From: Alteromonas ponticola
Lineage (GTDB): Bacteria > Pseudomonadota > Gammaproteobacteria > Enterobacterales > Alteromonadaceae
Assembly (NCBI RefSeq): GCF_012911815.1
Contig: NZ_JAATNW010000003.1
Location: 327,078 to 359,077, forward strand
Direction: 5' to 3'
Length of the DNA: 32,000 bases
Positions 5,053 to 30,863 of this stretch are shown piece by piece. A program made the translations under genes and the position numbers. Each line of letters begins with the position of its first letter. Positions within the stretch are counted from its first letter, which is position 1. The notes under the pieces were generated by a model. The model was given only the letters and a program-made list of their open reading frames with translations, had not been told where the DNA came from and ran no database searches.

Positions 5053-5061
5053 GGATAAGCT

Positions 5062-5691
5062 GTGAGGAAAATTGGCATTACCCTCAGATCAAGCAATTCA
5101 ACGAAATATATCGAGTATAGAGATGCATTAGCTATAGATTGGTATACTTATCTTAAGAAATTGGGCTTTACCCATAATTGGATATTGTTACCTAATTTAG
5201 GAGCCGAGACTGTTGAATATGCCAGACTCCATAATGTCGAAGGATTGATCTTTAGTGGAGGCGAAAGCCTAGGCATGAATCCTCGGCGTGATAATTCAGA
5301 AATAACTCTGTTAAATTTCGCTATTGAACAGCAACTTCCCATTCTGGGTATTTGTCGAGGTCTGCAATTAATATATTCACAGCTAGGCGGAAAGCTAGTA
5401 GAAGGTAATACAAGTACAAAGCACGTTGCAACAAGACACTTAGTACAACTTTCGTCAGACCTACCTTTTGCATTCGGCGGTGAACGCTCCTTAGAAGTTA
5501 ACTCTTTTCATAGCCATTTACTCCCTCCATCGGATGCTCTCGTACAAGTAATGGCACAAGATGATGAAGGTTTCGTCGAAGGAATCATCGACGTACATAA
5601 AAAAATAGTAGGCATAATGTGGCACCCAGAAAGAGAATCTAATTGCTCTGACTTCGATAGAGCAATATTTAATTGGTTATTTAACGAATGA
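5062..5691 (+). CDS. Class I glutamine amidotransferase / peptidase C26-like hydrolase; candidate gamma-glutamyl-CDP-amidate hydrolase (Cj1417-like)
   Basis: GTG start. The nucleophile elbow is LGIC98RGLQL (tgt at 5353-5355), and the His/Glu pair sits in IMWHPERE, as in PuuD-type C26 hydrolases. The stop overlaps the next start (ATGA, 5688-5691). Confidence 0.75.
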   Translation: MRKIGITLRSSNSTKYIEYRDALAIDWYTYLKKLGFTHNWILLPNLGAETVEYARLHNVEGLIFSGGESLGMNPRRDNSEITLLNFAIEQQLPILGICRGLQLIYSQLGGKLVEGNTSTKHVATRHLVQLSSDLPFAFGGERSLEVNSFHSHLLPPSDALVQVMAQDDEGFVEGIIDVHKKIVGIMWHPERESNCSDFDRAIFNWLFNE

Positions 5692-6449
5692 GTAAAATGA
5701 AAGCTGTAATTTTAGTAGCAGGACGTGGCTCCCGTTTAGGCGAATTCACCGCTAATAAACCAAAACCCATGACGATTTTAGCTGGCACCCCCCTAATTGA
5801 ATGGCAGTTGCAAGCATTAAAACAAGCTGGAATTGAAGATATTCATTTAGTAGCTGGGTATCAAGCCGAAGCATTTAACAAATATCAATTGCCCACTTTC
5901 GTAAACGACAATTGGTTTAGTAGTAATATGGTGAGTAGTCTGCTTTGTGCCGATCCACTATTATCTGAACACGACACTATCGTAAGCTATGGGGATATTG
6001 CATATCATTCATCTATCATAGCAAAATTAAAAGCATCACCGTCAGGGCTAAGTATTACCAATGACAAATCATGGCTAGATTTGTGGAATTTGCGCTTTGA
6101 AAACCCATTAGATGATGCAGAGGAATTTAAATGTATTAATGGCCATCTACAAGCAATAGGTAAAAAGGCGACGAATTTGTCAGAAATTGAAGGTCAATAT
6201 ATGGGTTTGCTAAAAATTTCTGCCGAAAGCTGGAGAGAGATTAAAACGCATCTGTTATCCCTACCTTCTAAAGAACTGCAATCTAAAGACATGACATCTT
6301 TATTAAATGACTTAATAACGTCCGGTCATAATATAGCTACTGTTGACGTTAATGGTGGTTGGGTTGAAGTTGACCTCCCCAGTGACATTATCTGTTACGA
6401 AACTCAACTGAAGCTTCAATCAGATTGGGCTCACGATTGGCGAGAATAG
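5688..6449 (+). CDS. Nucleotidyltransferase (NTP_transferase, LicC-like); candidate CTP:phosphoglutamine cytidylyltransferase (Cj1416-like)
   Basis: The N-terminal KAVILVAGRGSRLGEFTANKPKPM is the G-x-G-x-R-L ... K-P-K signature of sugar/phospho-headgroup nucleotidyltransferases. Length is 253 aa. Confidence 0.75.
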   Translation: MSKMKAVILVAGRGSRLGEFTANKPKPMTILAGTPLIEWQLQALKQAGIEDIHLVAGYQAEAFNKYQLPTFVNDNWFSSNMVSSLLCADPLLSEHDTIVSYGDIAYHSSIIAKLKASPSGLSITNDKSWLDLWNLRFENPLDDAEEFKCINGHLQAIGKKATNLSEIEGQYMGLLKISAESWREIKTHLLSLPSKELQSKDMTSLLNDLITSGHNIATVDVNGGWVEVDLPSDIICYETQLKLQSDWAHDWRE

Positions 6450-7898: not shown

Positions 7899-8303
7899 TT
7901 AATTTTCCTCAACCATTTTCAAAAAATCATCATAACTTCTAATATAGTCAGATTCGTCATAGATTTGGTCTGCCAAAACCATTAATACGCAATCTTCAGT
8001 AAAATCAAACATTTCACGCCAAATAAAAGACTCAATAAGCAGCCCCTGTGCAGGATGGTTCAGGGTAATTTCTATTTTTTCCTTACCATCATCCAGTAAG
8101 AACTTGCATGAACCGCGAACAGCTATAGCGACCTGTTTGAGCGCTTTGTGAGCATGATAGCCTCTACGAACACCTTTTCCAGTATTAAACATGTAATAAA
8201 CCCGCTTAATGTTAAATGGTACATTCGCATTTTCTTCTAGAGCAATTAAAGATCCACGGTCATCACCACAACTTTTTAGCTGTACCAGTTTAATGTCCAT
8301 CAT
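7899..8303 (-). CDS. WxcM/FdtA-like sugar 3,4-ketoisomerase (cupin)
   Basis: DDRGSLIALEE...VPFNIKRVYYMFN...RRGYHAHKALKQVAIAVRGSC...LLDDG...ESFIWREM...DCVLMVLADQIYDESDYIRSYDDF matches the FdtA family pattern (D.RG.L..E..iPF.ikRvyy...RG.HAH+.l.Q...G...W...vllvlaS..Yd..DYI.dy). Confidence 0.75.
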   Translation of the reverse strand: MMDIKLVQLKSCGDDRGSLIALEENANVPFNIKRVYYMFNTGKGVRRGYHAHKALKQVAIAVRGSCKFLLDDGKEKIEITLNHPAQGLLIESFIWREMFDFTEDCVLMVLADQIYDESDYIRSYDDFLKMVEEN

Positions 8304-9855
8304 CTTTCTCCGTGGTAAGATTAAGTGAATCTCTTAGCCACAAATTCACATCATCGATATTAAGTTCGTAACTTTTACTATAAAGGTTCTCATGATCGCT
8401 TACTCCGGCTCTATATGTGATATAAATAAGTTGAACTCCTACAATATATGCCAGATTCGAAAACGTTGATGCGTTCCCCCACTCCTCTGCCATCCAGCAT
8501 AAGGCCTTAGCGCCTTTCTTTGCGAATAAAATGTTTGTCCAAGCTGCTCCTGTCGGTCCAACGATGATGTCGGCATTACTAAAAACAGTCGCCTGCTCAA
8601 TGATGGTCATATTTTCAGGATTAACTTTCTTAAAACCATAACGGCTCAGGTTTTCAAAAACTTCATCTTGGTTATAACATCGATGTTTCATTGAAGGGGC
8701 TAAAAAAACTCGTTTGATTTTTGGTACATCACTCCTGGGCAAAGAATTCAATACGAGATTTCTTAAATAGTTTAAACTGTCATCTCGGTAATAAATATAT
8801 TCAGGTGGTGACCAAGCCGCCCCCTTTATACGAGGACAACACCTATTTGGAGAATTAAGTATAATTAAATCTTTTACTTTTACTGTTTCTGTCGACGAAA
8901 TTTTAATAAATTCATTTGGCAAATTAAACAATGAGATTAACTCTTTAATTGACTCGTACTTAAATGCCATTTTCGAAATGATTAACGGGTAAGAAGCAAA
9001 TTTTTCATTTAGTTCTTTCAAGTATTCTAACTGAGATAAAATCTCGATTATCCAGTGATAATAATTGGAGTCATAATAGCCATTAATGAGAATGCCTCTT
9101 TCAAAAATGCGCTGATGGCCCGTCTTAATTAGAGCTTGTTTATCTTCAAAGTGGTGAAGTACATGCCCTTTATTGTACTTCGCAAACTTCATGCTAATTG
9201 TATGCATTTTTTCGATGACGAGTGATTTATTACCTATTGCAAAGGCTCTGGAAATCGCACAAATCTGGGCATCGCTAAATTGGTAAGCTGCAACTTCAGG
9301 TATCGTTATTTCTACAAATTTTTGTGAGCGATCAATAAAGTTGGGGCCGGCTATGTGGTGCTGTTTAGCTTGACGAAATATTTGGATTTTATTTGACTGA
9401 CAATCGTCAAGATTTTCTGTAGGAATTATATCGTAACCAAAAAATTGGAAAAACGGACGATATAGTTTAGAGATACTTTGGGGTAATCTACAGATTAGAT
9501 TACGACTGAAATTCTGACAAGATTTGCGCCACTGTTTTAAGAGTGGTTTTTTACTGACAACTGAACGATAGTAGATAATGGGAATAGTTTTAAAATGCTT
9601 ATTCGTTTTAAGATTGTGGTAGATTTCTTCAAAAAAATCACTTGCAATAAGAATAAGGTCGATATCAAGTGTTGAGATAGCTGACGGTGCTAATACGGGA
9701 GTTGTACCTATGAAAGTCCCTTGTTTCGTTGTATCGTTATCCATATAAGCGACAATTTCATACTTTGACCTCACAGTTGGCACGAAATTTCTAGCCGCAG
9801 ATCCAGTTCCAAAGATCACCACTCTTTCTTTTCTGCCACGTTTCAAAATTTTCAT
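8290..9855 (-). CDS. Glycosyltransferase family 61 (DUF563)-like protein with an N-terminal Rossmann-like module
   Basis: Central DSNYYHWIIEILSQLEYLKE (the DUF563 hallmark yyH..E.l..L) and C-terminal ADIIVGPTGAAWTNILFAKKGAKALCW (the HGAgltN.lF equivalent). The N-terminus VVIFGTGSAARNF...MDNDTTKQGTFIGTTPVL resembles PglD/NeuD-type N-terminal nucleotide-binding modules. There is a 14-nt overlap with the downstream FdtA-like gene. Confidence 0.6.
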   Translation of the reverse strand: MKILKRGRKERVVIFGTGSAARNFVPTVRSKYEIVAYMDNDTTKQGTFIGTTPVLAPSAISTLDIDLILIASDFFEEIYHNLKTNKHFKTIPIIYYRSVVSKKPLLKQWRKSCQNFSRNLICRLPQSISKLYRPFFQFFGYDIIPTENLDDCQSNKIQIFRQAKQHHIAGPNFIDRSQKFVEITIPEVAAYQFSDAQICAISRAFAIGNKSLVIEKMHTISMKFAKYNKGHVLHHFEDKQALIKTGHQRIFERGILINGYYDSNYYHWIIEILSQLEYLKELNEKFASYPLIISKMAFKYESIKELISLFNLPNEFIKISSTETVKVKDLIILNSPNRCCPRIKGAAWSPPEYIYYRDDSLNYLRNLVLNSLPRSDVPKIKRVFLAPSMKHRCYNQDEVFENLSRYGFKKVNPENMTIIEQATVFSNADIIVGPTGAAWTNILFAKKGAKALCWMAEEWGNASTFSNLAYIVGVQLIYITYRAGVSDHENLYSKSYELNIDDVNLWLRDSLNLTTEKDDGH

Positions 9856-10096
9856 ACTACTTACTGCATTTCACTAGTTAGGCTTAGCCATCCTAAAATT
9901 TACAATGGCAGCTAAATTATCATGATACTATAGAAGTTCTTCTCTTTTCAGTAAATAACACAAACTGTAAAGTTTAATCTATAAGTAAAAAGTTCAATCA
10001 GATTCAGTCAGTTCGATACTAAATTGGCGGTGCTTATAATCCCAAAAAAGGCTGTTACTGCAAATTGTATCGGATATTTACGAGGAAACATTAGTA
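9856..10096. promoter_or_regulatory. Divergent intergenic region (241 bp) between the GT61-like (-) and aminotransferase (+) genes
   Basis: Position only: it is AT-rich and flanked by two divergently oriented start codons. A GAGGAAA Shine-Dalgarno lies 8 nt before the ATG at 10097. I did not identify -10/-35 elements with any confidence. Confidence 0.3.
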
Positions 10097-11224
10097 ATGA
10101 AGGTTCCTTTTTTAAATTTAAGAGCGATTAATGCAAGGGATGAGCATGCGATAATCAGTGCGTGCGAAAGAGTTATAAAAAGTGGCTGGTATGTGAACAG
10201 TGAAGAGGTGTCCAATTTTGAAAGTAAATTTTCTAACTATTGCGGCACAAAATATTGCATCGGTGTAGCCAATGGGTTGGACGCTCTGAAATTGACACTG
10301 GCCGCATGGAAAATTCTCGGGAAATTAAAGGATGGTGATGAAGTGCTTGTGCCCGGAAATACATTTATAGCCACCGTCCTCGCCGTAATCGATACGGGTT
10401 TAAATCCAGTATTTGTTGAACCGGATCCTGAAACATTCCTTATTTCAAATTCGTCACTTGAAAGTGCCATAACCAGTAGATGCAAAGCGATTATTCCAGT
10501 TCATTTGTATGGGCAATTAGTAGATTTATCAGCTTTACGAGGTGTGATTGAGAAGCACGAATTATTGGTACTCGAAGATTCTGCACAAGCCCATGGCGCT
10601 TCTTTGATGGGAAAGCGCGCGGGCAACCTGGGGCATGCAGCTGCATTTAGTTTTTACCCTGGCAAAAACCTTGGCGCATTAGGCGATGGCGGCGCAGTGA
10701 CAACTAACGATGCTGAGCTGGCTAGTTTAATAAAAGCATTAGCAAACTATGGTTCGGAAGATAAGTACGTACATTCATTTGTGGGGTACAATAGTCGACT
10801 AGACGCCATTCAAGCCGCAATTCTCAACGTGAAACTAACTCGTCTGGATAATGATATCGAATTGCGCCGAAAGATAGTGCACAGATATCTTAACGAAATC
10901 AGTAACCCTCATATTAGTTTACCTTCTATAAATGATACACAGAGTCACGTCTGGCATTTATTTGTTGTTAAAACGGAATTCAGAAAAGCTCTGCAAGCGT
11001 GGCTAACTGCTCATGATGTCCAAACGTTGGTTCATTATCCAATCGCTCCTCATAAACAGGAGGCTTTGTCACAATTCAGCCACACGATACTACCAGTGAC
11101 GGAAAATTTACAGTCAGTAGTTCTCAGTTTGCCGGTTGATCCCACATTAGATAATGAGCAGGTTAGCTACGTTATCGATGTGTGTAATAAGTTTAAACTG
11201 AATGCCGAAAACCACCCACTTTAG
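10097..11224 (+). CDS. DegT/DnrJ/EryC1-family PLP-dependent sugar aminotransferase (FdtB/QdtB/WecE-like)
   Basis: The N-terminus [48 protein letters not shown] is the classic family opening. Also present: EDSAQAHGA and [17 protein letters not shown] (PLP-lysine motif). Confidence 0.85.
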
Positions 11225-11300
11225 GATACCGATTTTGATGACATTAATTCGACCTGAAAAGCCTACCAAATTTCGCACGAAAAATTAAAATTGATAGTGA

Positions 11301-12218
11301 TTAGTCCAAAGGATAAGTTTTTGGACTCGCTTCTTTTATGTCATTGAATTCAACTTTGTTCAAGTTTGCGTAGTCTGTCAGCTGCATATTTTGTTTAGGC
11401 GTTTTCCAATCACCATACTGATATGTCAGGTAAGCCTCGTATTCAAAAGGAACGGTGATTTTACTACCATTCCAATTGAGTTTCTCACATGATAAAAAGT
11501 GCTTTTCAGGGCTGTGCCACATTCCTAAGCTCGGCATATGATGTGCGATACCATCCTTAAACTCTCTTAAGGCAAATGAAGTAGAAAAATTAGCAATCTC
11601 ACCCGTTTGATCTGTGAACAAAAGTAGTAGCCCTAAAGTCTCGCCCATTCTATTTTTGAGCTCATCAATACGCCATTCAATGTTATATTCTGAGTGTGCA
11701 ATGAAATCCTTTAACACACTAACAAGTTCAGGTACGCAATCTTTGTCAATTGTAAAATCAATATCGTCGTCCCACGGGATAATATCACCATCGCGGACGA
11801 TGCCAAGTAGAGTACCGAAGTCGACCATTAAAGGAATTTCTTTACTCGCTGACAATTGGCAAAGCAATGTGATGATATGCCGGCCGAGAATTAATGTGTT
11901 TGCATCCCTAAATGGTTCAACCTTGAGCGCTTTTAACGTTTTCTTTTTGGGAATTAGTACTTTGGTCTTATCGATACCCAAACTTTCCGTGAGTTGCGTA
12001 TACACTTCCATAGACCATTGGGTAGTGATAACGATTTGATCAAATTCAAGTTTTAACACTGACTCTGGTCCCATTACGTTTAAATCTCGAATGGTCGTGC
12101 CAACTTTCGTCGGATCATTATCCAGAATACCGATAAATTCCCGCTCGTTATCTTGAACACTATCAAGGTATTGGCATGCGCCAGCACTTGCTCCGAATAA
12201 GAGCGTTTTAATGGTCAT
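11301..12218 (-). CDS. LicD-family phospho-headgroup transferase with an N-terminal Rossmann-like module
   Basis: DFGTLLGIVRDGDIIPWDDDIDFTI is the LicD/fukutin nucleotidyltransferase-fold signature (LLG.vR.g..IPWDDDiD). The N-terminus LLFGASAGACQYL...LDNDPTKVGTTIRDLNVMGP is homologous to the N-terminus of the 8290-9855 protein. Confidence 0.7.
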   Translation of the reverse strand: MTIKTLLFGASAGACQYLDSVQDNEREFIGILDNDPTKVGTTIRDLNVMGPESVLKLEFDQIVITTQWSMEVYTQLTESLGIDKTKVLIPKKKTLKALKVEPFRDANTLILGRHIITLLCQLSASKEIPLMVDFGTLLGIVRDGDIIPWDDDIDFTIDKDCVPELVSVLKDFIAHSEYNIEWRIDELKNRMGETLGLLLLFTDQTGEIANFSTSFALREFKDGIAHHMPSLGMWHSPEKHFLSCEKLNWNGSKITVPFEYEAYLTYQYGDWKTPKQNMQLTDYANLNKVEFNDIKEASPKTYPLD

Positions 12219-12219
12219 A

Positions 12220-13305
12220 TCATGTCCCCTCGTTCAAACTTGATAGCAGGATTTGCTTGATCTGAGCTGAAGTAACAGGCCGAGTAAAGTTTTTTGCTCT
12301 ACTGGGCTCCAAGTCATAATCATACTCACTAATTATTTGCTCTGCTGATGCAAAATGTGTCACCTCATCAACAAGTTTTAGACTGGATAACAAATCTTCA
12401 AGCCCATCTCGTTGCGCTGAGCTAAGCCCCAACTCTTCGTTTTTGAAAAGTGAGAGCAAAGCAGGTAACGTAAAACTACAGGCCAAACCATGCGGAATGC
12501 CATACTTCAAAGTTAGCGAGTAGGACATCGCATGGGCGAGCGCAGTTCGCGTCTCAGTAATTGCCATCCCAGCCAGATTTGCCCCTACCAACATAGTTTT
12601 TCTTGCTTCGAGTGACTGGGGAGTTGCCAGAACCCGGGGCAAACCATCTAACACATGATCAATAGCTGATAAGGCCGCCTTCTGGCTTGAAGGAGTGCGT
12701 TGGTTGTTCCATAACGACTCAAGTGCGTGAGAAAGCGCGTCCAAGCCAGAGTACAAGGTTTCATTTCGCGGGAGTGTCTGTGTTAAGTTCGCGACCAGAA
12801 TAGTTGAGTCTGGTATGCGATCGGAGAACGAGTATTTGGTTTGGGTTCGGCTGTCCCACACCGTGGCAAAAGGAGTGATTTCGGCGCCAGTTCCAGATGA
12901 AGTCGGTATGGTAGTAAGCGGAATCGGTTCGTTATTGGGTAATGCCGTTCTTAAAACAAGATACTCTTCCAGTTTCGCTGAAGATTGACCAAGCATGCGG
13001 CTAAGCACTTTTGCTGAATCCATGACACTTCCACCCCCCAATGCGATGATAGAGGTAAAATCAGTGCGTTGATATTGCTCAAGTATCCGAGCTAAATAAG
13101 CCAATTCAGGATTTGGCGAAACATCTTCGATTACGGTGAATGAACAATTTGGCAGCGAAGCCAGCACTTCATCCACCACACCTCTCTGTCTAAAGCCAGC
13201 ACTGGTTATCAATAATGGTTTACGACCAAGAGACAAGCGACTTAGCGTATCAGTTAATGATTCAGAGATTACTACATTAAACTCCGGCACACTTTCCTTG
13301 ATCAT
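12220..13305 (-). CDS. Group III iron-containing alcohol dehydrogenase; candidate phosphonoacetaldehyde reductase (PhpC/FomC-like)
   Basis: Fe-ADH layout: GGGSVMDSAK, GLDALSHALESLWN, ALAHAMSYSL and GIPHGLACS (metal His ligands). It shares a 4-nt ATGA overlap with the upstream phosphonopyruvate decarboxylase gene. Confidence 0.8.
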   Translation of the reverse strand: MIKESVPEFNVVISESLTDTLSRLSLGRKPLLITSAGFRQRGVVDEVLASLPNCSFTVIEDVSPNPELAYLARILEQYQRTDFTSIIALGGGSVMDSAKVLSRMLGQSSAKLEEYLVLRTALPNNEPIPLTTIPTSSGTGAEITPFATVWDSRTQTKYSFSDRIPDSTILVANLTQTLPRNETLYSGLDALSHALESLWNNQRTPSSQKAALSAIDHVLDGLPRVLATPQSLEARKTMLVGANLAGMAITETRTALAHAMSYSLTLKYGIPHGLACSFTLPALLSLFKNEELGLSSAQRDGLEDLLSSLKLVDEVTHFASAEQIISEYDYDLEPSRAKNFTRPVTSAQIKQILLSSLNEGT

Positions 13306-14444
13306 TTCAAGTGCTCTTGAGCTTTTTGAGTGCTACCAAGATGTTGCATAAACGCTTGCTTATTTTCGATTGGTGTTGATGTGGGACGACCAAGTTCAGC
13401 CCGGGCCCCCTGAGCAATCTGAATTTCGACTAACACGGGCCCCTCACTCTCAGTACAGCGGGTAAAATAATTCTGGATTTCCTTTTCTGATGAAAAGCAC
13501 AGGTAGTCTTTATAGCCACAGGCCTTTGCTAAACCTTTAATATCCACGCTAGTGATCACCGTCGGCTGACCGCCGACAGATTCGTGGCTTTGGTTATTCA
13601 AAACGACGTGAATGAAGTTTGATGGCGCGACTGCCCCTGTTACCGCCAGAGCCCCCATATGCATCAGCATCGAGCCATCTCCATCCAGCGCGACCACCAA
13701 CCTTTTAGGCTGTGCCATGGCTACACCAAGTGAGATTGAGGCGGTGTGTCCCATCCCCCCCACAGTGAGAAAGTCTCGAGTAGGTTGGTTTTTTGCCTTT
13801 CTTAGCTCAAATACCTCGCGTGAAGTTTTCCCTGTGGTCGATACGACCACTGTATCAGGATGCATGCAATCTAAAAGACAAGAGAGTGCACTCTCTCTTT
13901 TCATACTGAATGATTGTAAACCAGGCGAGGACGTCACTGACGCGAAAGTATCTTTTTTCACCACCAATGCCACAGGACGTGACTCTTCATACATTTGTTT
14001 GAGCAACAGCGCAATAGAGTCAAACGTCGATGTACTATCTACAACCAGGTGAGGCACATCGAGTAACTCAAGCTGTTGAAGGGTGATCGCCCCTTGTTTA
14101 ACGTGTTGGGGCTCATCTTTTACGTTCGGTTCACCCCGCCATCCTATTACTAATAGCATGGGAATACTGTATACCTGTCGATCACACAAAGATGTCATTG
14201 GGTTAACGACATTACCTAACCCAGAGTTCTGCATATACACTACAGCTGCATTGCCGGAACCGAGATAGAACCCAGTTGCCATCGCCATTGCATTACCCTC
14301 ATTGGCAGTAATGATATGTTGTTTTTTCTCATAGTGATTATCAATATAAGCACAAAGAGATTTTAACAATGAATCAGGAACACCATAGTATTGAGTTAGC
14401 CCTTTGTGCGCCAGGAACGTACAAAACTCCGCAGGCGAAATCAT
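13302..14444 (-). CDS. ppd: Phosphonopyruvate decarboxylase (ThDP-dependent)
   Basis: The N-terminal GVPDSLLKSL is typical of Ppd/AepY. The ThDP-binding motif is LDGDGSMLMHMGALAV...VVLNNQSHES. Its start overlaps the PEP mutase stop by 1 nt (TAATG at 14444). Confidence 0.85.
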   Translation of the reverse strand: MISPAEFCTFLAHKGLTQYYGVPDSLLKSLCAYIDNHYEKKQHIITANEGNAMAMATGFYLGSGNAAVVYMQNSGLGNVVNPMTSLCDRQVYSIPMLLVIGWRGEPNVKDEPQHVKQGAITLQQLELLDVPHLVVDSTSTFDSIALLLKQMYEESRPVALVVKKDTFASVTSSPGLQSFSMKRESALSCLLDCMHPDTVVVSTTGKTSREVFELRKAKNQPTRDFLTVGGMGHTASISLGVAMAQPKRLVVALDGDGSMLMHMGALAVTGAVAPSNFIHVVLNNQSHESVGGQPTVITSVDIKGLAKACGYKDYLCFSSEKEIQNYFTRCTESEGPVLVEIQIAQGARAELGRPTSTPIENKQAFMQHLGSTQKAQEHLK

Positions 14445-15745
14445 TATTTACCACCCGGAATAAGCTCAAGTATTTGCTTAATTGGCATCATATTTTCGTC
14501 TACTTCAGCCGAGCGCCCATGAGTTAGGATGCTTTGCGCTGTATTCATCATAGCTGGATAAGCGCTACGTAGAAGCTGATTTGCATAAATGACTACATTT
14601 ACGCCTCGTGCCTCTAAATCTTTTTCGTAGACTTGGTTATAACTTGAGGGAACTGCTACGAGCGTTTTTCGATTTGAAAGCTGATTGTAGCGATCACAGA
14701 ATTCGAAAATTTCATCGGGTGATTTCTGCCGACTATGGATCATAATGCCATCAGCACCTGCTTCGAGATAAGCTTGCGCACGCTTCATCGCATCATCGAC
14801 TCCTTGATCAAGAATCAGACTCTCAATACGCGCAATGATCATAAAATCCTGGGTCGCCTGAGCTGTTTTGCCTGCCTGAATTTTATGACAGAAGTTTTCG
14901 ATAGAATCCTGCGTTTGGGCCACGTCGGTACCGAACAAGGAGTTCTTTTTCAAACCTGTCTTGTCTTCAATGATAACCGCCGATACACCGAGGCGCTCCA
15001 GCGTCTTAACTGTAAATACGAAGTGTTCGGTCTTACCACCGGTATCACCATCATAAATAATAGGCTTTGTGGTAACTTCAAGCACTTCGTTCAGTGTAGA
15101 CATGCGCGACGTAACATCGACCGCTTCGATATCGGGCTTTCCCTTGGCAGTAGAGTCTGTCAGGCTGCTTCCCCACATCCCATCAAACTCTCTGGGGCCG
15201 TTCTCTGTCTCTATGCGAGTATTTTCGATAATTAACCCAGAGAGTGCATTATGGATATCCAAAAAACGGACTAAGGGTTTAGCGTTAAGAATTCGACGCA
15301 ATGACTTCAATCGCACCTCTGGGGTGGTGCCAATCTCTTTCATTGCATTATGTATTTGGGTTGAAGAGATGCCGTGGGTATAGGGAACTTCGACTAATTT
15401 TCCATCCCATTGAGCCAGGCAATCGATCACTCGTTGACGGGTTTTCTTTTGAATGCCCGATGTCCAGTCATCACCATGCACAACGAAGTCAGGCTTTAAG
15501 GCCTCTAAGTTTGGCACATAATCCAGCGTTTCCTGAGGGATCACATATTCCACCCCTTTAATATTTTCAATTACCTCTTTGCGTTGCTCAAAAGTCATAA
15601 ATGGAACACGTTTATAGCTGGCAATGGCTTTGTCAGTTAACAAACCCACTGTCACTTCACCTAATTCCGTTGCACGCTTAATAATATTCAGGTGGCCAGG
15701 ATGGACTAAATCAGCGCTCATTCCGAGATATACTTTTTTCGTCAT
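14444..15745 (-). CDS. ppm: Bifunctional cytidylyltransferase (HIGH-type, TagD/ECT-like) / phosphoenolpyruvate mutase fusion
   Basis: Residues 1-135 carry [18 protein letters not shown] (the H-x-G-H cytidylyltransferase motif). Residues about 150-433 are isocitrate-lyase/PEP-mutase fold and carry the Ppm-specific E-D-K-x5-N-S motif. This is [10 protein letters not shown], residues 260-269, nt 14939-14968, checked codon by codon. Confidence 0.9.
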
Positions 15746-15783
15746 TTTCTCTACTTCTAATATGATTTTTGTTGCTCAATATG

Positions 15784-15851
15784 CAATGTAGTGATGTCTG
15801 CGTAAGTTTTTGAATCTGCTTAATTAAGCTTCATTTAATATCACTGCATTG
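15784..15851. repeat. 12-bp inverted repeat (1 mismatch) enclosing a perfect 12-bp palindrome, in the luxC-like/ppm spacer
   Basis: The arms are caatgtagtgat (15784-15795) and atcactgcattg (15840-15851), matching at 11 of 12 positions. GCTTAATTAAGC at 15818-15829 is a perfect palindrome between them. Confidence 0.5.
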
Positions 15852-15925
15852 TCATCTATTCGATAGTTTTAATTTTATATTTACGGCCACAGTGTGAACA
15901 AATACTGTAATGAGTAACTTCACCA

Positions 15926-17101
15926 CTACTCAACACTAATAACTCTTGTGAGCTGATCAACCAGACTATATCCATCCCAGTTAGACGAAAATGATAATGC
16001 TTGTCCTAATGGTATCAGTCGGTCAATACCCTTTATCGACGGGCCGGTTAAAAACTTAACCAGATCCCCTTTATCTATTCCCCAATAACTCAACGTTTGC
16101 ATTTTTTCGTCACAATATTTGGTCAGGTCTTTAATTTCTTCTATCGGTACCACCCAGATTGAAAACTGGCCGTTGTGAAAAGTCAGGTCCAGGGGTGAGC
16201 AAGCCGACATTTTTAAAACCAATAATTTATTATAGATTTGAGCATCTTCGATATTGCCAATTACAGCCATTGATTGCGCCATAATGAACTGCTCGTTTTT
16301 AAGCGTAATTGAATATTTGTCGTTGAATTTATCGCCTAGGGATTTAAAAAATGCAGACTGAAGGGTAGCGTCTCCTTGCCAAAACAAAATTTTTGGAGAA
16401 GAACATGCTTGCTGCTCAAAAGGATGAATATCGCGATAAAATCTTCCCGCTACATCATCAAGGTTTAATTCTGTCAGACTGTTGCCATTTAAAACACTTG
16501 CTGAATAGCGGTCTGAAAAACTTATATCCCGGCATCTTGGTTTGATTGGGAGCTGTCGAATAGCGGAAACACTCTCATCACCTCCCCATAGAATCCGTGC
16601 ATCAGCACTCATACTTACAGTATCTGCTGCTGCATTATTGGACTTATCGAATTGCACAAATAAGTTTGTATTCGAAATAGGTGAAAAGTCTGATTTACTC
16701 AAAACATATTGAATGTTCTCAAGCAGTGTCCTTTGTAAGTCTGATAACAATGAGCTGAGTTTTACAATGTTTTTGTTTCCGCAAATTAAAGAGGTTATCC
16801 AGCTGTAAACAAACATAGTATCGACGTTTGCCGGAGTGTAGTGGACAACTAAACCAACGGGTTTGCGAAGACTGGAAAAATAGGGTTTAAACTCTTTTTC
16901 AAGGCTTCTTTCACGCAACCAAAAACCCAAGGCAACTAACTCAGAAAAATTCTGGTCCGTGTTTTTCAATAACCTGTCAGACAGCTCAGATATAAACGCG
17001 ACAACCAATTTATCATAAGGCCTGAAATTCTCACTTTTAAAAAGATTAAGAGTACTTAAGTCTTGTACATTAGTTACTTGCGTTACCAGGCTTTTATCCA
17101 T
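15926..17101 (-). CDS. LuxC-like acyl-CoA/acyl-protein reductase family protein
   Basis: ALDH-related layout with the candidate catalytic Cys in FEQQACSSPKILFW (LuxC family pattern Q.aCsSP). It has an 8-nt overlap with the upstream LuxE-like gene, the usual LuxC/LuxE pairing. Confidence 0.55.
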   Translation of the reverse strand: MDKSLVTQVTNVQDLSTLNLFKSENFRPYDKLVVAFISELSDRLLKNTDQNFSELVALGFWLRERSLEKEFKPYFSSLRKPVGLVVHYTPANVDTMFVYSWITSLICGNKNIVKLSSLLSDLQRTLLENIQYVLSKSDFSPISNTNLFVQFDKSNNAAADTVSMSADARILWGGDESVSAIRQLPIKPRCRDISFSDRYSASVLNGNSLTELNLDDVAGRFYRDIHPFEQQACSSPKILFWQGDATLQSAFFKSLGDKFNDKYSITLKNEQFIMAQSMAVIGNIEDAQIYNKLLVLKMSACSPLDLTFHNGQFSIWVVPIEEIKDLTKYCDEKMQTLSYWGIDKGDLVKFLTGPSIKGIDRLIPLGQALSFSSNWDGYSLVDQLTRVISVE

Positions 17102-18185
17102 CAGTGGACCTCACTGTATCACTGCACCCTCTTATCTCGGTTTTAGGTAAGCGGCCTTCGACAACAAAATAACGCCCTGCCCTGCCACATTCACAATCAT
17201 CTTCGCCCAGCATTTTACCTATATCTTCCGTAAGTAAACTAAAGCCCGGATAGCTGGTGGGGATGACCGAGAGCACCTGAATAAGTCCTTGTTCACCATT
17301 TGATTGCGGTTCAAGAGTGTAAGGGTTGCGGATGAGAATATCGGCAAACGGCGGAGCGTGCAGGTGGCCTTTTTCACACTCGACAAACACGCTGCCTACC
17401 TGCTCAGCCATACCGTAAAAGTTATGCACTTTTGCTATACAGGTTACCTCTTTTAAGGTTTCTTTGAATACCTGATTACTGACTTGCTGTTCAGTTAATT
17501 TCTTCCAGCCACCGCTATGAATAAGCACACCATCAGTGAATGGCAGTTGCAAATTACGCTGTTGTAAAGCCTGGATAAAGTGCAACCACACCATGAAGGT
17601 AAAACCAAATAACAGTACCGGCTTACCCTGATGCTTTTCAGAAAATTGAGTAATGGCATCCACATTCAGTGACATGTCTACGTTCAGGGCGTAAGTATGA
17701 TCGCGGCCGAAAAATGCCATGCCCTGTATACCGGCCCCCCGCGCCGACAAGGTGGGGTTTTTCAGCACCGCTGGCGAATCAATGATAAGCATTGGTAAGC
17801 GCTGTTTACCGATAAAAGACTGCATGATATTCACCAGCACCTTGCTTTGTCTGGCACTGGTCTGTTTATCCAGAAAAATGCGGGCAGGCGTTTGCCCGGT
17901 GGTACCTGACGAGCTAAGTGTTTTGAACACCTCCGCCTGCGGAACGCTCTTTAATTCGTAAAACTTGAATAGTCTTACGGCCAGGAAAGGCAGGTCTTCG
18001 TAGCGTTCAAACTTTACCTGAGAGAGTGACGTTATGCGCTGATACTCTTCGCAGTTAGCATAATGGTGCTGATGTAAAAACCGAAAGCACTCCAGCAAAA
18101 TGGCAGACTTTTGTGACTGATCAATAGTGTCAGTGCCAGCTTCAAAAAGCGTACCCAGATATTGCTGATAGGAAGATTCTGACAT
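17094..18185 (-). CDS. LuxE-like acyl-protein synthetase (adenylate-forming) family protein
   Basis: It has the SSGTTGQTPARI adenylation P-loop, is 363 aa (LuxE-sized), and is paired with a LuxC-like ORF. Confidence 0.55.
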   Translation of the reverse strand: MSESSYQQYLGTLFEAGTDTIDQSQKSAILLECFRFLHQHHYANCEEYQRITSLSQVKFERYEDLPFLAVRLFKFYELKSVPQAEVFKTLSSSGTTGQTPARIFLDKQTSARQSKVLVNIMQSFIGKQRLPMLIIDSPAVLKNPTLSARGAGIQGMAFFGRDHTYALNVDMSLNVDAITQFSEKHQGKPVLLFGFTFMVWLHFIQALQQRNLQLPFTDGVLIHSGGWKKLTEQQVSNQVFKETLKEVTCIAKVHNFYGMAEQVGSVFVECEKGHLHAPPFADILIRNPYTLEPQSNGEQGLIQVLSVIPTSYPGFSLLTEDIGKMLGEDDCECGRAGRYFVVEGRLPKTEIRGCSDTVRSTDG

Positions 18186-18265
18186 TCATTCACTCTGGTT
18201 TTATCAATCTTTTACGACAGAAATTTGCCTGTTAGTGCTGATTTTGATGAATTAACCTTACAATA

Positions 18266-19654
18266 TCAAGCATTGACAAGGAGTTGGTCATATAACGCGG
18301 TATAATCTGTTTTACCATTTGCCAGTAGCGGCCATTCTTTAATCTGGTAGGTTTTTATCGACTTTGGCGGAACCCGAAGCAACTGAATGGCGCACTGCTT
18401 TATCGCATCGCACTGGCCCGAAGTACAGCAGATAACAAGTTCATCGTCTTTTCCCACGCAGCGCACATCAGAACCTGATTGCATCAAAGCAAATTCAACC
18501 TCATCAAGGCTACACCGCTCTCCGAACAGTTTAATTATCCGCTTCAGCCTGCCAGTAATAAAAAAGTCACCCTCTTCGTCGAAATAGCCGATGTCACCGG
18601 TATGTAGGGTATGTGATGGTGAAAATGAGGCCAGCCCTTCATGTTTATTGACATACCCCAACATCACATTGGGTCCCTGATAGACTAATTCACCTTTTTC
18701 TAGTGCACTCCTTATGGGTTCGCCATCTTCATTTATGATAGCAAGTTGACCATCAGGGAGAGCCTGTCCGATGCTGCCAGGCTTTGCGGCGACCTTGTGG
18801 GCAGGAAGGTATGCCATACGGGCGGTGGCTTCGGTTTGACCGTACATTACGAACAATTGTTTGTTATTGTGATCAGCATAGTCAGCAAGTTTGACCACCA
18901 ATGGTTCAGCTAACTTGCCGCCAGCCTGAGTCAAATAACGCAGATTCGGCAAAACGTTGCGCTCAAACCGCAAACGCAGCAGCATTTCATACCAACTGGG
19001 AACGCCATTTAGCGAAGCGATGTTGGCCTCTTTCAATAGTGTCCAGAAACCTTTATCCATCACGGTCAGATCAGTCAGACGAACACCTGCGCCCATCGCT
19101 AGATGGGTATGCAATACAGACAGCCCATATGAATAGGAAAATGGTAATGAAGCTAATGTTACATCGCTATTTTCAATGGGTAAGAAAGCCAAAATAGAGC
19201 GTGTATTGGCAATCAGATTCTGCATCGACAAAGCGACAAATTGCTGACTGCCTGTAGAGCCTGATGTGGATAACAGGATCGCTAATTCAGCTGCCAGATT
19301 AAGCTGCTGTTGAGATAGTAACCGAAAGCTTCCTTCTTCAATCAGGACATTGGGAGAAAACTGCTGAACAATCGCGGCTACGATTTCGTCCCGCGCATTG
19401 CTGTTAACTACAATGCACGGATAATGAGCTTGCAGACAGGCTAAATAGTTGACGACGCTGTCAATGGTGTTAGCCATTCGCAGTAACATTAACGGTCGCA
19501 GACTGCCCACGCGCAACTGCCATTCATTTATTCGTTGGTCAACGCGTTTTTGCAGCCCGGCATAGGTGATTGAATCGGCGTCACTGATTAACGCGGGGGC
19601 GGCGCCGAATTGATCCAGTGAGCGATTAAACAAGGGAAACGACATTAAGGGCAA
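18266..19654 (-). CDS. AMP-dependent synthetase/ligase (stand-alone adenylation enzyme, DltA-like size)
   Basis: ANL core motifs are present: LLSTSGSTGSQQ (A3), YGQTEAT (A5), GDIGYFDEEGDFFITGRLKRIIKLFGERCSL (A7/A8) and NGKTDY (A10 Lys). Length is 462 aa. Confidence 0.85.
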   Translation of the reverse strand: MPLMSFPLFNRSLDQFGAAPALISDADSITYAGLQKRVDQRINEWQLRVGSLRPLMLLRMANTIDSVVNYLACLQAHYPCIVVNSNARDEIVAAIVQQFSPNVLIEEGSFRLLSQQQLNLAAELAILLSTSGSTGSQQFVALSMQNLIANTRSILAFLPIENSDVTLASLPFSYSYGLSVLHTHLAMGAGVRLTDLTVMDKGFWTLLKEANIASLNGVPSWYEMLLRLRFERNVLPNLRYLTQAGGKLAEPLVVKLADYADHNNKQLFVMYGQTEATARMAYLPAHKVAAKPGSIGQALPDGQLAIINEDGEPIRSALEKGELVYQGPNVMLGYVNKHEGLASFSPSHTLHTGDIGYFDEEGDFFITGRLKRIIKLFGERCSLDEVEFALMQSGSDVRCVGKDDELVICCTSGQCDAIKQCAIQLLRVPPKSIKTYQIKEWPLLANGKTDYTALYDQLLVNA

Positions 19655-20412
19655 AATGCCCCATCCACCGGCAGTATGTGCCCGGTGGTGTAAGCCGATT
19701 GGTTGGATAATAAAAAGCTGACGGCTTTAGCCACATCGGCTGGTGTGCCGGCACGCTTCATAACAATACGCTGCAACACAATGTCGCGCCTTTCCTGGTC
19801 GTAATGTCTGGTCATTGCTGTGTCAATAAAGCCAGGCGCCACACCGTTTACGCGAATACCCACAGGGGCTAATTCTTTGGCCAGCGATACAGTAGCGCCT
19901 TTCAACGCGGCTTTGCTTGATGCATAAGCGCTCATGCCGGAACTACCAAGTTCACCTACTTGAGAGAGAACATTAACAATTGATCCTTTACGTTGCCGCG
20001 CCATCAATCTACAGGCAAGTTGCATATGCTGATAGGGTGCCAGAAAATTAATATTTAATTGCTCTTTAAGCTTATCCATAGAGCTAACAGTTATAGGCGC
20101 TTCAAACATCACACCAGCGTTATTCACTAAACCATGCAAAGGCCCGATATCTGATTGCATCTGCATTTTTTGAATTTGGCGAAATTGTTCTTTTACGGCT
20201 TTTTCATCTGTTACATCGTAGATGAGCGGTACGACTTTCCCTGCCCAACTGTCAAGCAGTGGCGCAAGCTTATCTTCATCACGGGCATTAGCGAAGACCG
20301 AAGCTCCTGACTTGAGACACGCGGCAACAATGGCTTGTCCAATCTCTCCCGTGGCCCCGGTCACTAAAACTGACTTACCCTTGAGGCTATTAGGATCAGA
20401 ATTGGACGTCAT
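19645..20412 (-). CDS. Short-chain dehydrogenase/reductase (FabG-like 3-oxoacyl reductase)
   Basis: VLVTGATGEIGQAI (T-G-x3-G-x-G), NNAG and YASSKAAL (Y-x3-K). It overlaps the downstream ligase gene by 10 nt. Confidence 0.85.
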   Translation of the reverse strand: MTSNSDPNSLKGKSVLVTGATGEIGQAIVAACLKSGASVFANARDEDKLAPLLDSWAGKVVPLIYDVTDEKAVKEQFRQIQKMQMQSDIGPLHGLVNNAGVMFEAPITVSSMDKLKEQLNINFLAPYQHMQLACRLMARQRKGSIVNVLSQVGELGSSGMSAYASSKAALKGATVSLAKELAPVGIRVNGVAPGFIDTAMTRHYDQERRDIVLQRIVMKRAGTPADVAKAVSFLLSNQSAYTTGHILPVDGAFCP

Positions 20413-20635
20413 ACTTTGCCAGAATTTCTTTTGCTTTGCCCACCGTGCTCATATCGATGATGTCATCCGTGTCTAGCATCACATCAAAGCTATCTTCTAA
20501 TTCTGCGACCAGTATCATGTGCGCAGTTGAATCCCATTGTTCGATTGTGTTGTAGGTCAAGTCATCGGTCACCTGCTCTGGTTGAATCCCCAGGGCGTGA
20601 CAGAATACCTGCTTAATTTTTGCGTTGTTATCCAC
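20396..20635 (-). CDS. Acyl/peptidyl carrier protein
   Basis: 79 aa and acidic, with a candidate phosphopantetheine site in EQWDSTAHMILVAELE (D-S-x motif at the start of helix II). It overlaps the SDR gene by 17 nt. Confidence 0.75.
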   Translation of the reverse strand: MDNNAKIKQVFCHALGIQPEQVTDDLTYNTIEQWDSTAHMILVAELEDSFDVMLDTDDIIDMSTVGKAKEILAKYDVQF

Positions 20636-20649
20636 TCTATACGACCTTA

Positions 20650-21231
20650 TTATCCTTTACGCGGCGACCTGGAAAGTAATCGCCTGATTAAACCAGTGTG
20701 CCGCTCAAACTCTTCTTTTTGCAAGCGTAAATCAATTAATTCTGCCTGATTGACGACTTGATAGCCAAGTTGCTGATTATATTTTAACGCCGCTTTATTC
20801 TCCGCTTTAACCACCGCAAAAAAACTTTCTACTGGCAGATCCCTAAAGCAGTAATCATACAATGCCAGGGTGGGCGCAAAAGCAAGTATATTACCCTGGT
20901 ACCCAGGGTGGCCAATATACAACCCGGGCTCCAGCGTTTTTGCTGTAGTTAGTGAGTCGCCATGAAATCGCACTTTAATATTCGTCGCACCGATTGCTTG
21001 CCCTTTATATTCCACAACCCAGTGCTGCTGTGAATCATCACGTTGGATTTTTTTAAACCAGGCGTACTGCTGTTCTTCTGAGATAACATCGGTAGAAAGC
21101 ATCTGCTGTCGCACAGACTCGCTATTGCGCCACTCTCTAAGTTGGCTTAAATCATTTTGCGCAACTGGGCGCAATGTAACTTGAAACCCAGTTATCACAG
21201 GGCCTTGTGAAGAGTGATAAACATTTATCAT
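20650..21231 (-). CDS. pseH: GNAT N-acetyltransferase, PseH-like (UDP-4-amino-4,6-dideoxy-N-acetyl-beta-L-altrosamine N-acetyltransferase)
   Basis: LRPVAQNDLSQLREWRNSESVRQQM is the typical PseH opening (lrp....d...l..WRN...vr..m). It shares a 4-nt overlap with pseG. Confidence 0.7.
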   Translation of the reverse strand: MINVYHSSQGPVITGFQVTLRPVAQNDLSQLREWRNSESVRQQMLSTDVISEEQQYAWFKKIQRDDSQQHWVVEYKGQAIGATNIKVRFHGDSLTTAKTLEPGLYIGHPGYQGNILAFAPTLALYDYCFRDLPVESFFAVVKAENKAALKYNQQLGYQVVNQAELIDLRLQKEEFERHTGLIRRLLSRSPRKG

Positions 21232-22253
21232 ATTTGATGTTCAGCAATTTTTTTCAACAGCCTCATTGCACCTTCAGCATCATAATGCCCTTTGGCATTA
21301 TCTGACAAGGCTTGTAAATCTTCTTTCAAAAGTGCGTCTACGCAGCTTGCGATATCTTCAAATTGCACGCTTTCGGTACAATCAAAACTCCGCACCCAGC
21401 CTTCTTTTGCGGCCCGTTTAGTGGCCTCTCTCTGATTATCTGCAACTATAAGCAAAATCGAAGGCGTTGCACATGTTCCCAACTCGAACTGACTGCCCCC
21501 AGCTGCACTGATGGCCAATTTAGCATTGTTCCAGACGTCACTCATATCCTGGCAGTTATGTAAATGTTGAATGGGGTTTGAGAGCGCAGCGACACATATC
21601 TCCAGATCGGTTAGCCATTGGTATGCCGGGCCCGTTACCACACGGATAGGCAGATTGGGCAACCTTTTCGAAATGGCCATTAACAATGGGATAGTCAAAT
21701 TCTTAGTATCACTCCCACCCAGATTGATGGCTATACCGTTTCGCTGGTGTATTGGTTTTGGTGCAATCTCGGCAAATTCCCTGCGCAGCAGCCTAAATTC
21801 AGGTCCGTAGCAACACAACTGTTGTTCAGAATCATCTTTAGGGTCTGCTGTGGGATCTACAATAATATCCACGAATTGCGTTACCGATGTCATACCATCA
21901 TCCATTAACACCAGCGTACAACTCTCACTGCGGCTCGCTAGGATGGTCTCAGCAGCAAATGTGTATCCGTCAAAAATTATCGCTGCGGCATCCTGCTCTC
22001 TCGCTTGCTGGCTAATCCAGTTACCCTCCTCTTTGGCACAAAGCTCAGAAGGAAAATCAATAATCTGAAAATTCCAGTCGTGCCGTTTAGTTGCAATGGA
22101 TTTAGCGTCTGCATCTAACAAAAATACACTGGGTACACCACATTTTTCTGCAGCCTGAGCCAGCGCAAGACTACGCATAAGGTGGCCCGCACCAGTTTGA
22201 GCCGATGCAAGTACTCTGAATAACAATGATCTCAAGAGACGACCTGCTCCCAC
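21228..22253 (-). CDS. pseG: UDP-2,4-diacetamido-2,4,6-trideoxy-beta-L-altropyranose hydrolase, PseG-like (GT-B fold)
   Basis: The N-terminus LLFRVLASAQTGAGHLMRSLALA matches the PseG pattern (FRaD.s..iG.GH.mRcL.LA). It is about 340 aa and sits between pseI and pseH. The annotated start overlaps pseI by 22 nt, so the exact start is uncertain. Confidence 0.7.
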   Translation of the reverse strand: MGAGRLLRSLLFRVLASAQTGAGHLMRSLALAQAAEKCGVPSVFLLDADAKSIATKRHDWNFQIIDFPSELCAKEEGNWISQQAREQDAAAIIFDGYTFAAETILASRSESCTLVLMDDGMTSVTQFVDIIVDPTADPKDDSEQQLCCYGPEFRLLRREFAEIAPKPIHQRNGIAINLGGSDTKNLTIPLLMAISKRLPNLPIRVVTGPAYQWLTDLEICVAALSNPIQHLHNCQDMSDVWNNAKLAISAAGGSQFELGTCATPSILLIVADNQREATKRAAKEGWVRSFDCTESVQFEDIASCVDALLKEDLQALSDNAKGHYDAEGAMRLLKKIAEHQI

Positions 22254-24251: not shown

Positions 24252-24253
24252 GG

Positions 24254-30546: not shown

Positions 30547-30863
30547 TATTTTTCGTACTTTTTAACCGCTGATCGACTGCGGACAAAATGCGTAATGTCA
30601 TCTTTAACCGAGGTCAGCATCTGCTGGGCAATTTCCTTTAGTCTATCATTAACCACAATCTCCTGTTTAGCAAATTCCTTAGCATTTTCAGAAGGTAATG
30701 ATTGCAAGTAGGACTGAATAAAGGTATCGCGCTCATCTGCATATTGATTGAGCTTAGTAACTCGATCGTCATCTTCTTCGGCAGATAAAAGCGCTGCAAT
30801 TTTTTCATTAATCTGCTGCAGCGCTGGAGGGGTCAGGGAATGATTAAGTTCGTCTATTTTCAC
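30546..30863 (-). CDS. Small acidic helical protein, possibly a FliT-like flagellar chaperone
   Basis: The position after fliS is where fliT-like genes sit in gammaproteobacterial polar flagellar loci. I moved the start to GTG 30861-30863, which overlaps the fliS TGA (GTGA). The ATG at 30932 would overlap fliS by 73 nt. No diagnostic motif was found. Confidence 0.35.
   Translation of the reverse strand: MKIDELNHSLTPPALQQINEKIAALLSAEEDDDRVTKLNQYADERDTFIQSYLQSLPSENAKEFAKQEIVVNDRLKEIAQQMLTSVKDDITHFVRSRSAVKKYEK

Follow-up and report, generated by a model that had tools for sequence, protein, structure and literature searches.

In a 32-kb stretch of the Alteromonas ponticola genome, hereafter called the window and the one part of this genome that was scanned, we found a four-gene cassette whose products are predicted to make 2-hydroxyethylphosphonate (HEP), activate it as CMP-HEP and transfer it onto a glycan, within a flagellin glycosylation island built around pseudaminic acid (Pse). 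Because the arrangement recurs in three bacterial phyla, the flagella of these bacteria probably carry a phosphonate decoration specified by previously undescribed genes. Observed here are the identities of the genes and their key residues, a predicted fold for the LicD-family transferase that closes the cassette, the synteny with flagellar genes, and a promoter motif of the flagellar sigma factor FliA (sigma-28) type.

Predicted Synthesis and Activation of HEP

All four genes lie on the minus strand. A bifunctional cytidylyltransferase-phosphoenolpyruvate (PEP) mutase of Fom1-like architecture, termed CT-Ppm (14444-15745; PF01467 and PF13714, TIGR02320), carries its cytidylyltransferase (CyTase) domain at about 15332-15733 and its PEP mutase (Ppm) domain at about 14453-15301 in a single open reading frame (ORF). 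It is followed by the thiamine diphosphate (ThDP)-dependent phosphonopyruvate decarboxylase Ppd (13302-14444; TIGR03297), a PhpC-type phosphonoacetaldehyde reductase of the group III alcohol dehydrogenases (12220-13305; PF00465 and PF25137) and a two-domain LicD-family phosphotransferase (11301-12218; PF04991). When the sequence was re-read, the four ORFs stood at the coordinates given by the first-pass annotation, with the junctions it had reported: TAATG (1-nt overlap), ATGA (4-nt overlap, between ppd and the reductase gene) and TGA-T-ATG (1-nt gap, between the reductase gene and licD). The motifs it had named, that of PEP mutase, GVPDSLL, GDGS...NN and IPWDDDIDF, were all found as well.

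The mutase reaches 410 bits against the TIGR02320 PEP mutase model (cutoff 319.55) and has the active-site motif EDKxxxxxNS at residues 260-269. In the same protein PF01467 spans residues 10-132 with an HPGH motif at 15-18, and the CyTase domain (residues 5-138) aligns with the Fom1 structure PDB 5x3d at E 1.4e-61, 89 of 134 positions being identical (66%). It thus combines the N-terminal PF01467 fusion, the HxGH signature and the Fom1 similarity that mark HEP cytidylyltransferases of the Fom1 type. Fom1 has been shown to form CMP-HEP from HEP and CTP (Cho 2017, according to PMC6697681), and the 66% identity supports the first-pass proposal that the domain fused to Ppm would cytidylylate HEP. 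Ppd scores 451 bits against TIGR03297 (cutoff 312.5) and has both halves of its ThDP motif, GDGS at 255-258 and NN at 283-284, in addition to GVPDSLL.

Whether phosphonoacetaldehyde is reduced to HEP or transaminated to 2-aminoethylphosphonate (AEP) depends on the third gene. Its best NCBIfam model is the phosphonate-linked TIGR03405 (295 bits), which now carries the name of PsrA of Burkholderia, and NCBI names a protein identical to this iron-dependent alcohol dehydrogenase (Fe-ADH) phosphonoacetaldehyde reductase. Both the Fe-ADH and the LicD of the window have 100% identical counterparts among the NCBI proteins of A. ponticola. A 2026 study of PhpC-type enzymes identified the metal ligands of PhpC as Asp191, His195, His260 and His274 and its HEP clamp as Lys157, Arg349, Thr256 and Tyr264, the clamp tyrosine being strictly conserved in PhpC and replaced by phenylalanine in sulfoacetaldehyde reductases (PMC13576164). 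The window reductase has D189, H193, H258 and H272 as metal ligands and K157, R336, T254 and Y262 as the clamp, and none of these eight positions varies among 30 aligned homologues; we call it PhpC-type on these published signature residues.

The genomic setting points the same way. A metagenome scan with the CT-Ppm protein gave 80 loci at 66-83% identity, to which five loci fetched through reductase homologues were added, and an Fe-ADH gene lies immediately 3′ of ppd in 52 of the 53 CT-Ppm loci that are at least 66% identical and extend at least 900 nt past ppd. A scan with a generic Fe-ADH alignment was swamped by generic motifs and served solely as a negative control: 78 of the 80 loci recovered in this way had no Ppm nearby. 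The Fom1 match, the PhpC residues, the 52 of 53 loci and this control together make the CyTase-Ppm/Ppd/PhpC trio a tightly conserved module. The reductase gene, overlapping ppd here and standing next to ppm and ppd in relatives, shows the coupling of a biosynthetic enzyme; a catabolic role was rejected owing to this coupling and is implausible in so tightly conserved a setting.

Among the window ORFs scanned (all non-nested ones of at least 80 amino acids but one, plus a 79-aa acyl carrier protein (ACP)-like ORF), no PF00266 (PhnW-type) aminotransferase, HEPD or MpnS was found, which for these ORFs bears out the earlier statement that enzymes for AEP or for further tailoring are absent. No PF00266 gene stands beside ppd, its next gene being the Fe-ADH. 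The two DegT-type aminotransferases of the window are PseC and an FdtB-like sugar enzyme; the latter (10097-11224) was considered as an AEP transaminase and rejected, as it is a sugar aminotransferase on the opposite strand that pairs with FdtA. The signature residues and the nearly constant position of the reductase after Ppd support HEP as the predicted product, and on these grounds the cassette very likely makes HEP and CMP-HEP.

The LicD-Family Transferase

The last gene of the cassette would transfer the activated headgroup. Its product matches PF04991 at 51.3 bits (cutoff 22.6), and the acidic motif W149-DDD-x-D154 (D150, D151, D152 and D154) is invariant in 44 homologues. An AF2 model built from these 44 sequences has a mean pLDDT of 93, and a Foldseek search against PDB returned FKRP as its top 13 matches (E 1e-7 to 2e-6, about 180 columns), all falling on the C-terminal domain that bears W149-DDD-x-D154. 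FKRP is a ribitol-phosphate transferase that uses CDP-ribitol. A PF04991 match, an acidic DxD motif and an FKRP-like fold are thus present together, as in the LicD/FKTN/FKRP group.

Of 42 loci, 13 have a TagF-type gene right after the reductase gene and 12 a licD, giving a CDP-X phosphotransferase in 25 of 42. TagF-type enzymes (homologues of CDP-glycerol phosphotransferases) and LicD both use phospho-donors activated with CDP or CMP. The modelled fold together with this recurrence supports the idea, put forward in the first-pass annotation, that LicD would attach the headgroup.

The catalytic LicD/FKRP domain is encoded at about 11304-11861 and is preceded by a small Rossmann-like domain of about 110 residues (about 11883-12218), for which 3nkl is the nearest structure. 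Residues 4-96 of LicD align with residues 11-107 of a GT61-family glycosyltransferase encoded nearby (8290-9855, minus; PF04577) at E 7.6e-10, and precomputed annotations list the domain common to both as PF22674 'C2185-like_N'. In related flagellar islands the same module also heads GT2 enzymes and hexapeptide acyltransferases, and enzymes that tailor flagellin glycans may share it as a means of binding or docking to the acceptor. The two-domain LicD enzymes form a small subfamily: a search of 5.8 billion clusters yielded 150 proteins at E <= 1e-5.

The Flagellar Setting and Its Conservation

Upstream of the cassette and on its strand, the window holds a complete setting for flagellin glycosylation. 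The Pse pathway (20650-27089) comprises a PseH-like GNAT, PseG, PseI, a 323-aa protein, PseF, PseC and PseB, with NCBIfam equivalog scores that exceed their cutoffs for PseB (551 bits), PseC (522), PseF (322), PseI (499) and PseG (167); the PseH-like GNAT scores 71.5 bits, below its cutoff of 93.1. A Maf-family flagellin glycosyltransferase of 1155 aa (27079-30546; PF20157 at E 8e-108, and PF01973) comes before them, and fliS (30860-31288; PF02561) and the 3′ part of fliD (31333-31974; PF07195) tie the island to a flagellar locus, as is typical of Maf/Pse flagellin glycosylation islands. The first-pass annotation had placed the cassette on the same strand as pse, maf and fliS, and PseB/C/F/I/G, Maf, FliS and FliD are indeed all encoded upstream of it on that strand. 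Directly before the cassette lies a conserved acyl-handling block (15926-20635, minus) made of the ACP-like ORF (79 aa, 20396-20635), a short-chain dehydrogenase/reductase (SDR; 19645-20412), an AMP-ligase (18266-19654), a LuxE-like synthetase (17094-18185) and a LuxC-like reductase (15926-17101), the last four assigned by Pfam. The 323-aa protein (23280-24251, minus) has no Pfam match, and is kept at 43-44% identity between pseF and pseI in two relatives (L002, L087); it is probably an accessory of the window's Pse pathway.

Twelve further loci (L001, L002, L083, L086, L087, L122, L166, L167, L168, L169, L170 and L171; L-numbers denote the compared loci) have the whole cassette, or no less than the Ppm-Ppd-reductase part of it, amid genes for pse, maf, flagellin or the flagellum; they range over Alteromonadales, Shewanella, Aliarcobacter and Sporosarcina and thus over the three phyla. 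The gene order of the window (pse, ACP, SDR, ligase, cassette) is matched in a Logan contig (L001), Bowmanella denitrificans (L166) and Planctobacterium marinum (L168), and the order ACP/SDR/AMP-ligase/LuxE-like/LuxC-like before CT-Ppm is found in these three and in L086. The metagenome contigs L086 and L087 again show the order pse-cassette-LicD. Elsewhere the neighbours are rearranged: in Paraglaciecola aquimarina (L002) Maf lies downstream of the cassette, in Alteromonas lipotrueae (L083) the cassette has Maf on one side and genes for flagellin and FleQ on the other, and in an Idiomarina metagenome-assembled genome (L167) it stands beside three flagellin genes. The 7-kb metagenome contig L122 (605-6679) encodes CT-Ppm, Ppd and reductase and then a flagellin-like gene.

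Three of the most distant named members of the LicD subfamily were looked up, and each is accompanied by a Ppm-Ppd-ADH set. In Shewanella baltica (L169) this set and LicD adjoin flgT, flgO and flgP; in Aliarcobacter thereius (L170) they lie within a pseB-C-F-I cluster; and in Sporosarcina (L171) one flank of the cassette holds flagellin, PseB and Maf, the opposite flank PseF, PseG and a GNAT. This Gram-positive flagellar cassette (L171, 11029-15584) follows the same logic with different parts: instead of carrying an N-terminal PF01467 domain, its Ppm is fused at the C-terminus to a PF12804 nucleotidyltransferase, and the cassette encodes an NTP transferase as a protein of its own. In every locus examined, the two-domain LicD subfamily has pse or flagellar genes nearby.

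The trio without this LicD is found in loci of another kind, such as the lipopolysaccharide (LPS) or polysaccharide loci of Marinobacter (L084) and Desulfofustis (L085), and from this contrast a generic HEP module would serve several glycans. What is specific to flagella is therefore the LicD subfamily and the location. The synteny with pse, maf and flagellin genes across phyla, together with the promoter motif described below, supports the flagellin glycan proposed by the first-pass annotation, which we regard as the likely target.

A FliA-Type Promoter Motif Upstream of ppm

The sigma-28 (FliA) consensus was searched as TAAAGTTT-N11-GCCGATAA, and hits were counted at up to two mismatches. 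The window has a single one, TTAAGTTT-N11-GTCGATAA at 16033-16059 on the minus strand with two mismatches, where shuffled windows give 0.027 expected. It shares the strand of the cassette and stands 288 nt before the ppm start codon, within the 3′ end of luxC. Motifs of the same quality stand 66-195 nt upstream of CT-Ppm in five relatives (L001, L086, L087, L166, L169), and weaker forms occur in L002 (three mismatches) and in L083 and L167 (four each); none was found upstream of the non-flagellar cassettes of L084 and L085. The hexamers are kept among relatives, whereas the spacers diverge. The 264 kb of flagellar-context loci contain eight hits, of which six precede ppm, one a flagellin gene and one flgO; 2.17 Mb of other loci hold five, two of which, both near-consensus, flank the flagellin-like gene of L122.

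Judged from sequence, this motif is the strongest new argument for membership of the late flagellar regulon, and it suggests that the cassette forms its own late-flagellar transcription unit. Co-transcription with pse and maf, which the first-pass annotation had assumed, is therefore not needed. Between luxC and ppm lies an AT-rich spacer of 180 nt (15746-15925), in which no terminator-like hairpin was predicted on the minus strand, and in relatives that contain luxC this spacer measures about 20-139 nt (19 in L001, 41 in L166 and 138 in L168). Read-through from luxC into ppm may nevertheless occur, because L001 and L166 have a gap of only about 20-40 nt. Matches to a sigma-54 promoter were fewer than expected by chance, and a generic sigma-70 and terminator scan of 10000-21500 stayed at chance level.

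A weaker sigma-28-like motif with three mismatches was also seen at 10067-10093 (minus), 212 nt upstream of the GT61-FdtA operon and in the divergent gap between this operon and the DegT gene.

Proposed Pathway and Alternative Explanations

From these data we infer the product, the donor and the acceptor as follows. The Ppm domain would convert PEP into phosphonopyruvate, Ppd would decarboxylate this to phosphonoacetaldehyde, and the PhpC-type reductase would reduce the aldehyde to HEP. The Fom1-like domain fused to Ppm would then form CMP-HEP from HEP and CTP, and the LicD/FKRP-fold enzyme would transfer the 2-hydroxyethylphosphonyl group to a sugar hydroxyl with release of CMP, leaving a phosphonate monoester. 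The likeliest acceptor would be a Pse-based flagellin glycan or its nucleotide-linked precursor, which Maf would install on flagellin, and the cassette would be expressed from the FliA-type promoter within the flagellar late-gene programme. We lean towards HEP and CMP-HEP synthesis and the flagellin-glycan target both being right. The fuller proposal, that filaments of Alteromonadales, Shewanella, Aliarcobacter and Sporosarcina bear a programmed HEP ester on Pse glycans, installed by the two-domain LicD and in the gammaproteobacteria made together with flagellin from a FliA promoter, is more tentative, and we give it slightly less than an even chance.

Several observations weigh against this interpretation. 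The PF04991 match of LicD is partial, covering residues 126-173 and profile positions 4-50 (47 positions), the 295 bits of the reductase fall short of the curated TIGR03405 cutoff of 423.7, and the sigma-28 motif is missing upstream of the cassette in L168, L170 and L171. Location alone is not decisive, because the Ppm-Ppd-ADH trio is commoner in polysaccharide and LPS loci (L084, L085 and most metagenome loci) than in flagellar ones. From such loci one could argue that CMP-HEP is made and LicD decorates LPS, capsule or exopolysaccharide, the island being merely a hotspot of glycan genes: the trio sits in LPS-core/O-antigen and polysaccharide loci of Marinobacter and Desulfofustis, pse and maf genes are absent from the majority of the 80 metagenome loci, the HEP glycoconjugates known so far are exopolysaccharides (PMC8942020), and the GT61, TagF-like and Fdt genes of the island could serve another glycan. 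We consider this unlikely, since all the examined loci with the two-domain LicD, from three phyla, also contain pse or flagellar genes, since non-flagellar loci use other transferases, and since the motif found before ppm hardly occurs outside flagellar genes otherwise.

A different doubt concerns the headgroup, which may not be plain HEP: a transaminase encoded elsewhere could yield AEP, or HEP could be methylated, oxidised or converted (e.g., by MpnS or HEPD) before or after transfer. The visible genome is only 32 kb, so that PhnW, MpnS or HEPD may be encoded outside it, and the specificity of the CyTase for HEP is presumptive, because PF01467-Ppm fusions are known from AEP clusters too (PMC8942020). 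AEP is moreover the commonest bacterial phosphonate (PMC8942020) and the sole one reported on a flagellin (PMC8861647), and methyltransferase genes follow licD in L001, L002, L166 and L168. No methyltransferase gene adjoins the window cassette, however, and the translational coupling of the reductase to Ppd, its place after Ppd in nearly all related loci, the absence of PF00266, HEPD and MpnS from the scanned window ORFs and a CyTase closest to the HEP-specific Fom1 all make another headgroup improbable. Highly improbable, in our view, is that the genes serve a free small-molecule phosphonate, as in the early steps towards fosfomycin or phosphinothricin, or the degradation of environmental HEP. 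Fom1, Fom2 and FomC do run the same first steps in fosfomycin biosynthesis, and PhpC-type enzymes can be catabolic (PMC13576164); but Ppm and Ppd are biosynthetic, LicD is coupled to the reductase gene through a 1-nt gap, a CDP-X phosphotransferase follows the reductase in more than half of the 42 loci, and no Fom3, Fom4, HEPD, ATP-grasp, PhnX, PhnA or transporter genes were found among the scanned window ORFs.

Other Features of the Island

The acyl block, together with the below-cutoff PseH-like GNAT (15926-21231, minus), lies immediately before the cassette in the window as well as in L001, L086, L166 and L168, and its ACP, ligase and SDR part also accompanies the cassettes of Aliarcobacter and Sporosarcina. 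Such a block points to an unusual N-acyl substituent on Pse, possibly hydroxyacyl or aldehyde-derived, and such a group could supply the hydroxyl that accepts HEP. Near the window cassette lie in addition FdtA (7899-8303) and the DegT-type aminotransferase at 10097-11224, both of the 3-amino-3,6-dideoxyhexose pathway; the pair also occurs beside the CT-Ppm cassette in several unrelated loci (L090, L134, L142, L158, L160, L167 and L169), a recurrence that hints at a second possible acceptor sugar.

At the far end of the window, a gene set on the plus strand (840-6449) comprises an APS-kinase-like gene (PRK05541, above cutoff), a 794-aa PPDK-like gene (NF004508/PRK05849, 937 bits), a C26 amidotransferase with gamma-glutamyl-CDP-amidate hydrolase as its best NCBIfam model (87 bits, below cutoff) and an NTP_transf_3 gene. 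It is preceded at 4-843 by a truncated TagF-like phosphotransferase. This set mirrors the Cj1415-Cj1418 pathway of Campylobacter jejuni for the phosphoramidate (MeOPN) donor, and the island may therefore, by analogy, encode a second unusual phosphorus decoration.

Significance

Should the proposed pathway prove correct, an ester with a carbon-phosphorus (C-P) bond would join the known chemistry of flagellin glycans, with the full pathway open to knock-out. The widespread CyTase-Ppm/Ppd/PhpC module, so far characterised only in antibiotic pathways and exopolysaccharides, would gain its first biological role and regulatory context, namely the flagellar late-gene regulon. There would also be a culturable source of the HEP esters that build up in marine dissolved organic matter and feed methane production driven by C-P lyase. 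Since phosphonate esters resist phosphatases, the decoration could alter how flagella are recognised by phages, grazers and the immune system.

Relation to Known Systems

The first-pass annotation considered a phosphonate-decorated flagellin glycan to be undescribed. This claim needs qualifying, because mass spectrometry has revealed 2-AEP on a small proportion of the type A glycan that FliC of Clostridioides difficile carries (PMC8861647); what appears undescribed so far is a dedicated genetic system together with HEP chemistry. No paper on ppm genes in a flagellin glycosylation island came up when full texts were searched for flagellin glycosylation together with phosphonate, PEP mutase, Ppd or Maf. 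A 2025 review credits flagellin glycans with 'phosphonate moieties' (PMC12645811), a statement that we set aside as evidence, as it mostly concerns phosphate-containing glycans, with only Hensbergen et al. (2022) reporting a true phosphonate. In an inventory of phosphonate branch points, HEP clusters made up 8.5% of neighbourhoods, including those of C. jejuni and H. cinaedi, and flagella were not mentioned (PMC8942020). For marine bacteria, Acker et al. have suggested that glycoproteins are phosphonylated, with PglL-type O-glycosylation, and not flagellin, as the route.

Every component and the overall logic of the system are already known, from Fom1/Fom2/FomC, from Pnt with LicD, and from Maf with Pse. 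The fosfomycin pathway of Streptomyces wedmorensis shares the N-terminal PF01467-Ppm fusion, with a CyTase 66% identical to that of the window, then Ppd and an Fe-ADH reductase, and CMP-HEP as the activated intermediate, which for the window is a prediction. There, CMP-HEP is methylated by Fom3 on the way to the antibiotic, whereas the window cassette has LicD in place of Fom3 and Fom4 and lies in a flagellar island. The Pnt pathway (Ppm-Ppd-AEPT, PntC and a LicD-like protein; Rice et al., 2019, PMC6697681) has in common the logic of making a phosphonate, activating it with CMP and transferring it to a surface glycan. Its phosphonate is AEP, its cytidylyltransferases belong to PF12804 wherever they have been characterised, and its suggested targets are cell-wall glycans (PMC6697681), in contrast to the predicted HEP, PF01467 domain, distinct two-domain LicD, flagellin context and FliA-type promoter motif found here.

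The flagellin of C. difficile (Hensbergen et al., 2022, PMC8861647) likewise has a C-P compound esterified to an O-glycan. In that case the compound is AEP on a GlcNAc-phospho-N-methylthreonine glycan, a minor species in a genome that lacks pepM and in which no dedicated genes were identified (PMC8861647), whereas the window offers the genes of a complete and conserved predicted pathway. Known HEP-carbohydrate esters resemble our proposal in having HEP on a sugar; they come from actinomycete exopolysaccharides or from material of unknown origin, and no link to flagella or Maf was made. The Lic1 pathway (LicA, LicB, LicC and LicD) is alike in that a LicD-family enzyme moves a headgroup activated with CDP or CMP onto a glycan. 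Its headgroup, a phosphate ester, is imported from the medium before LicC activates it, whereas that of the window is predicted to be a C-P compound made de novo and transferred by a LicD that carries an additional N-terminal Rossmann-like domain.

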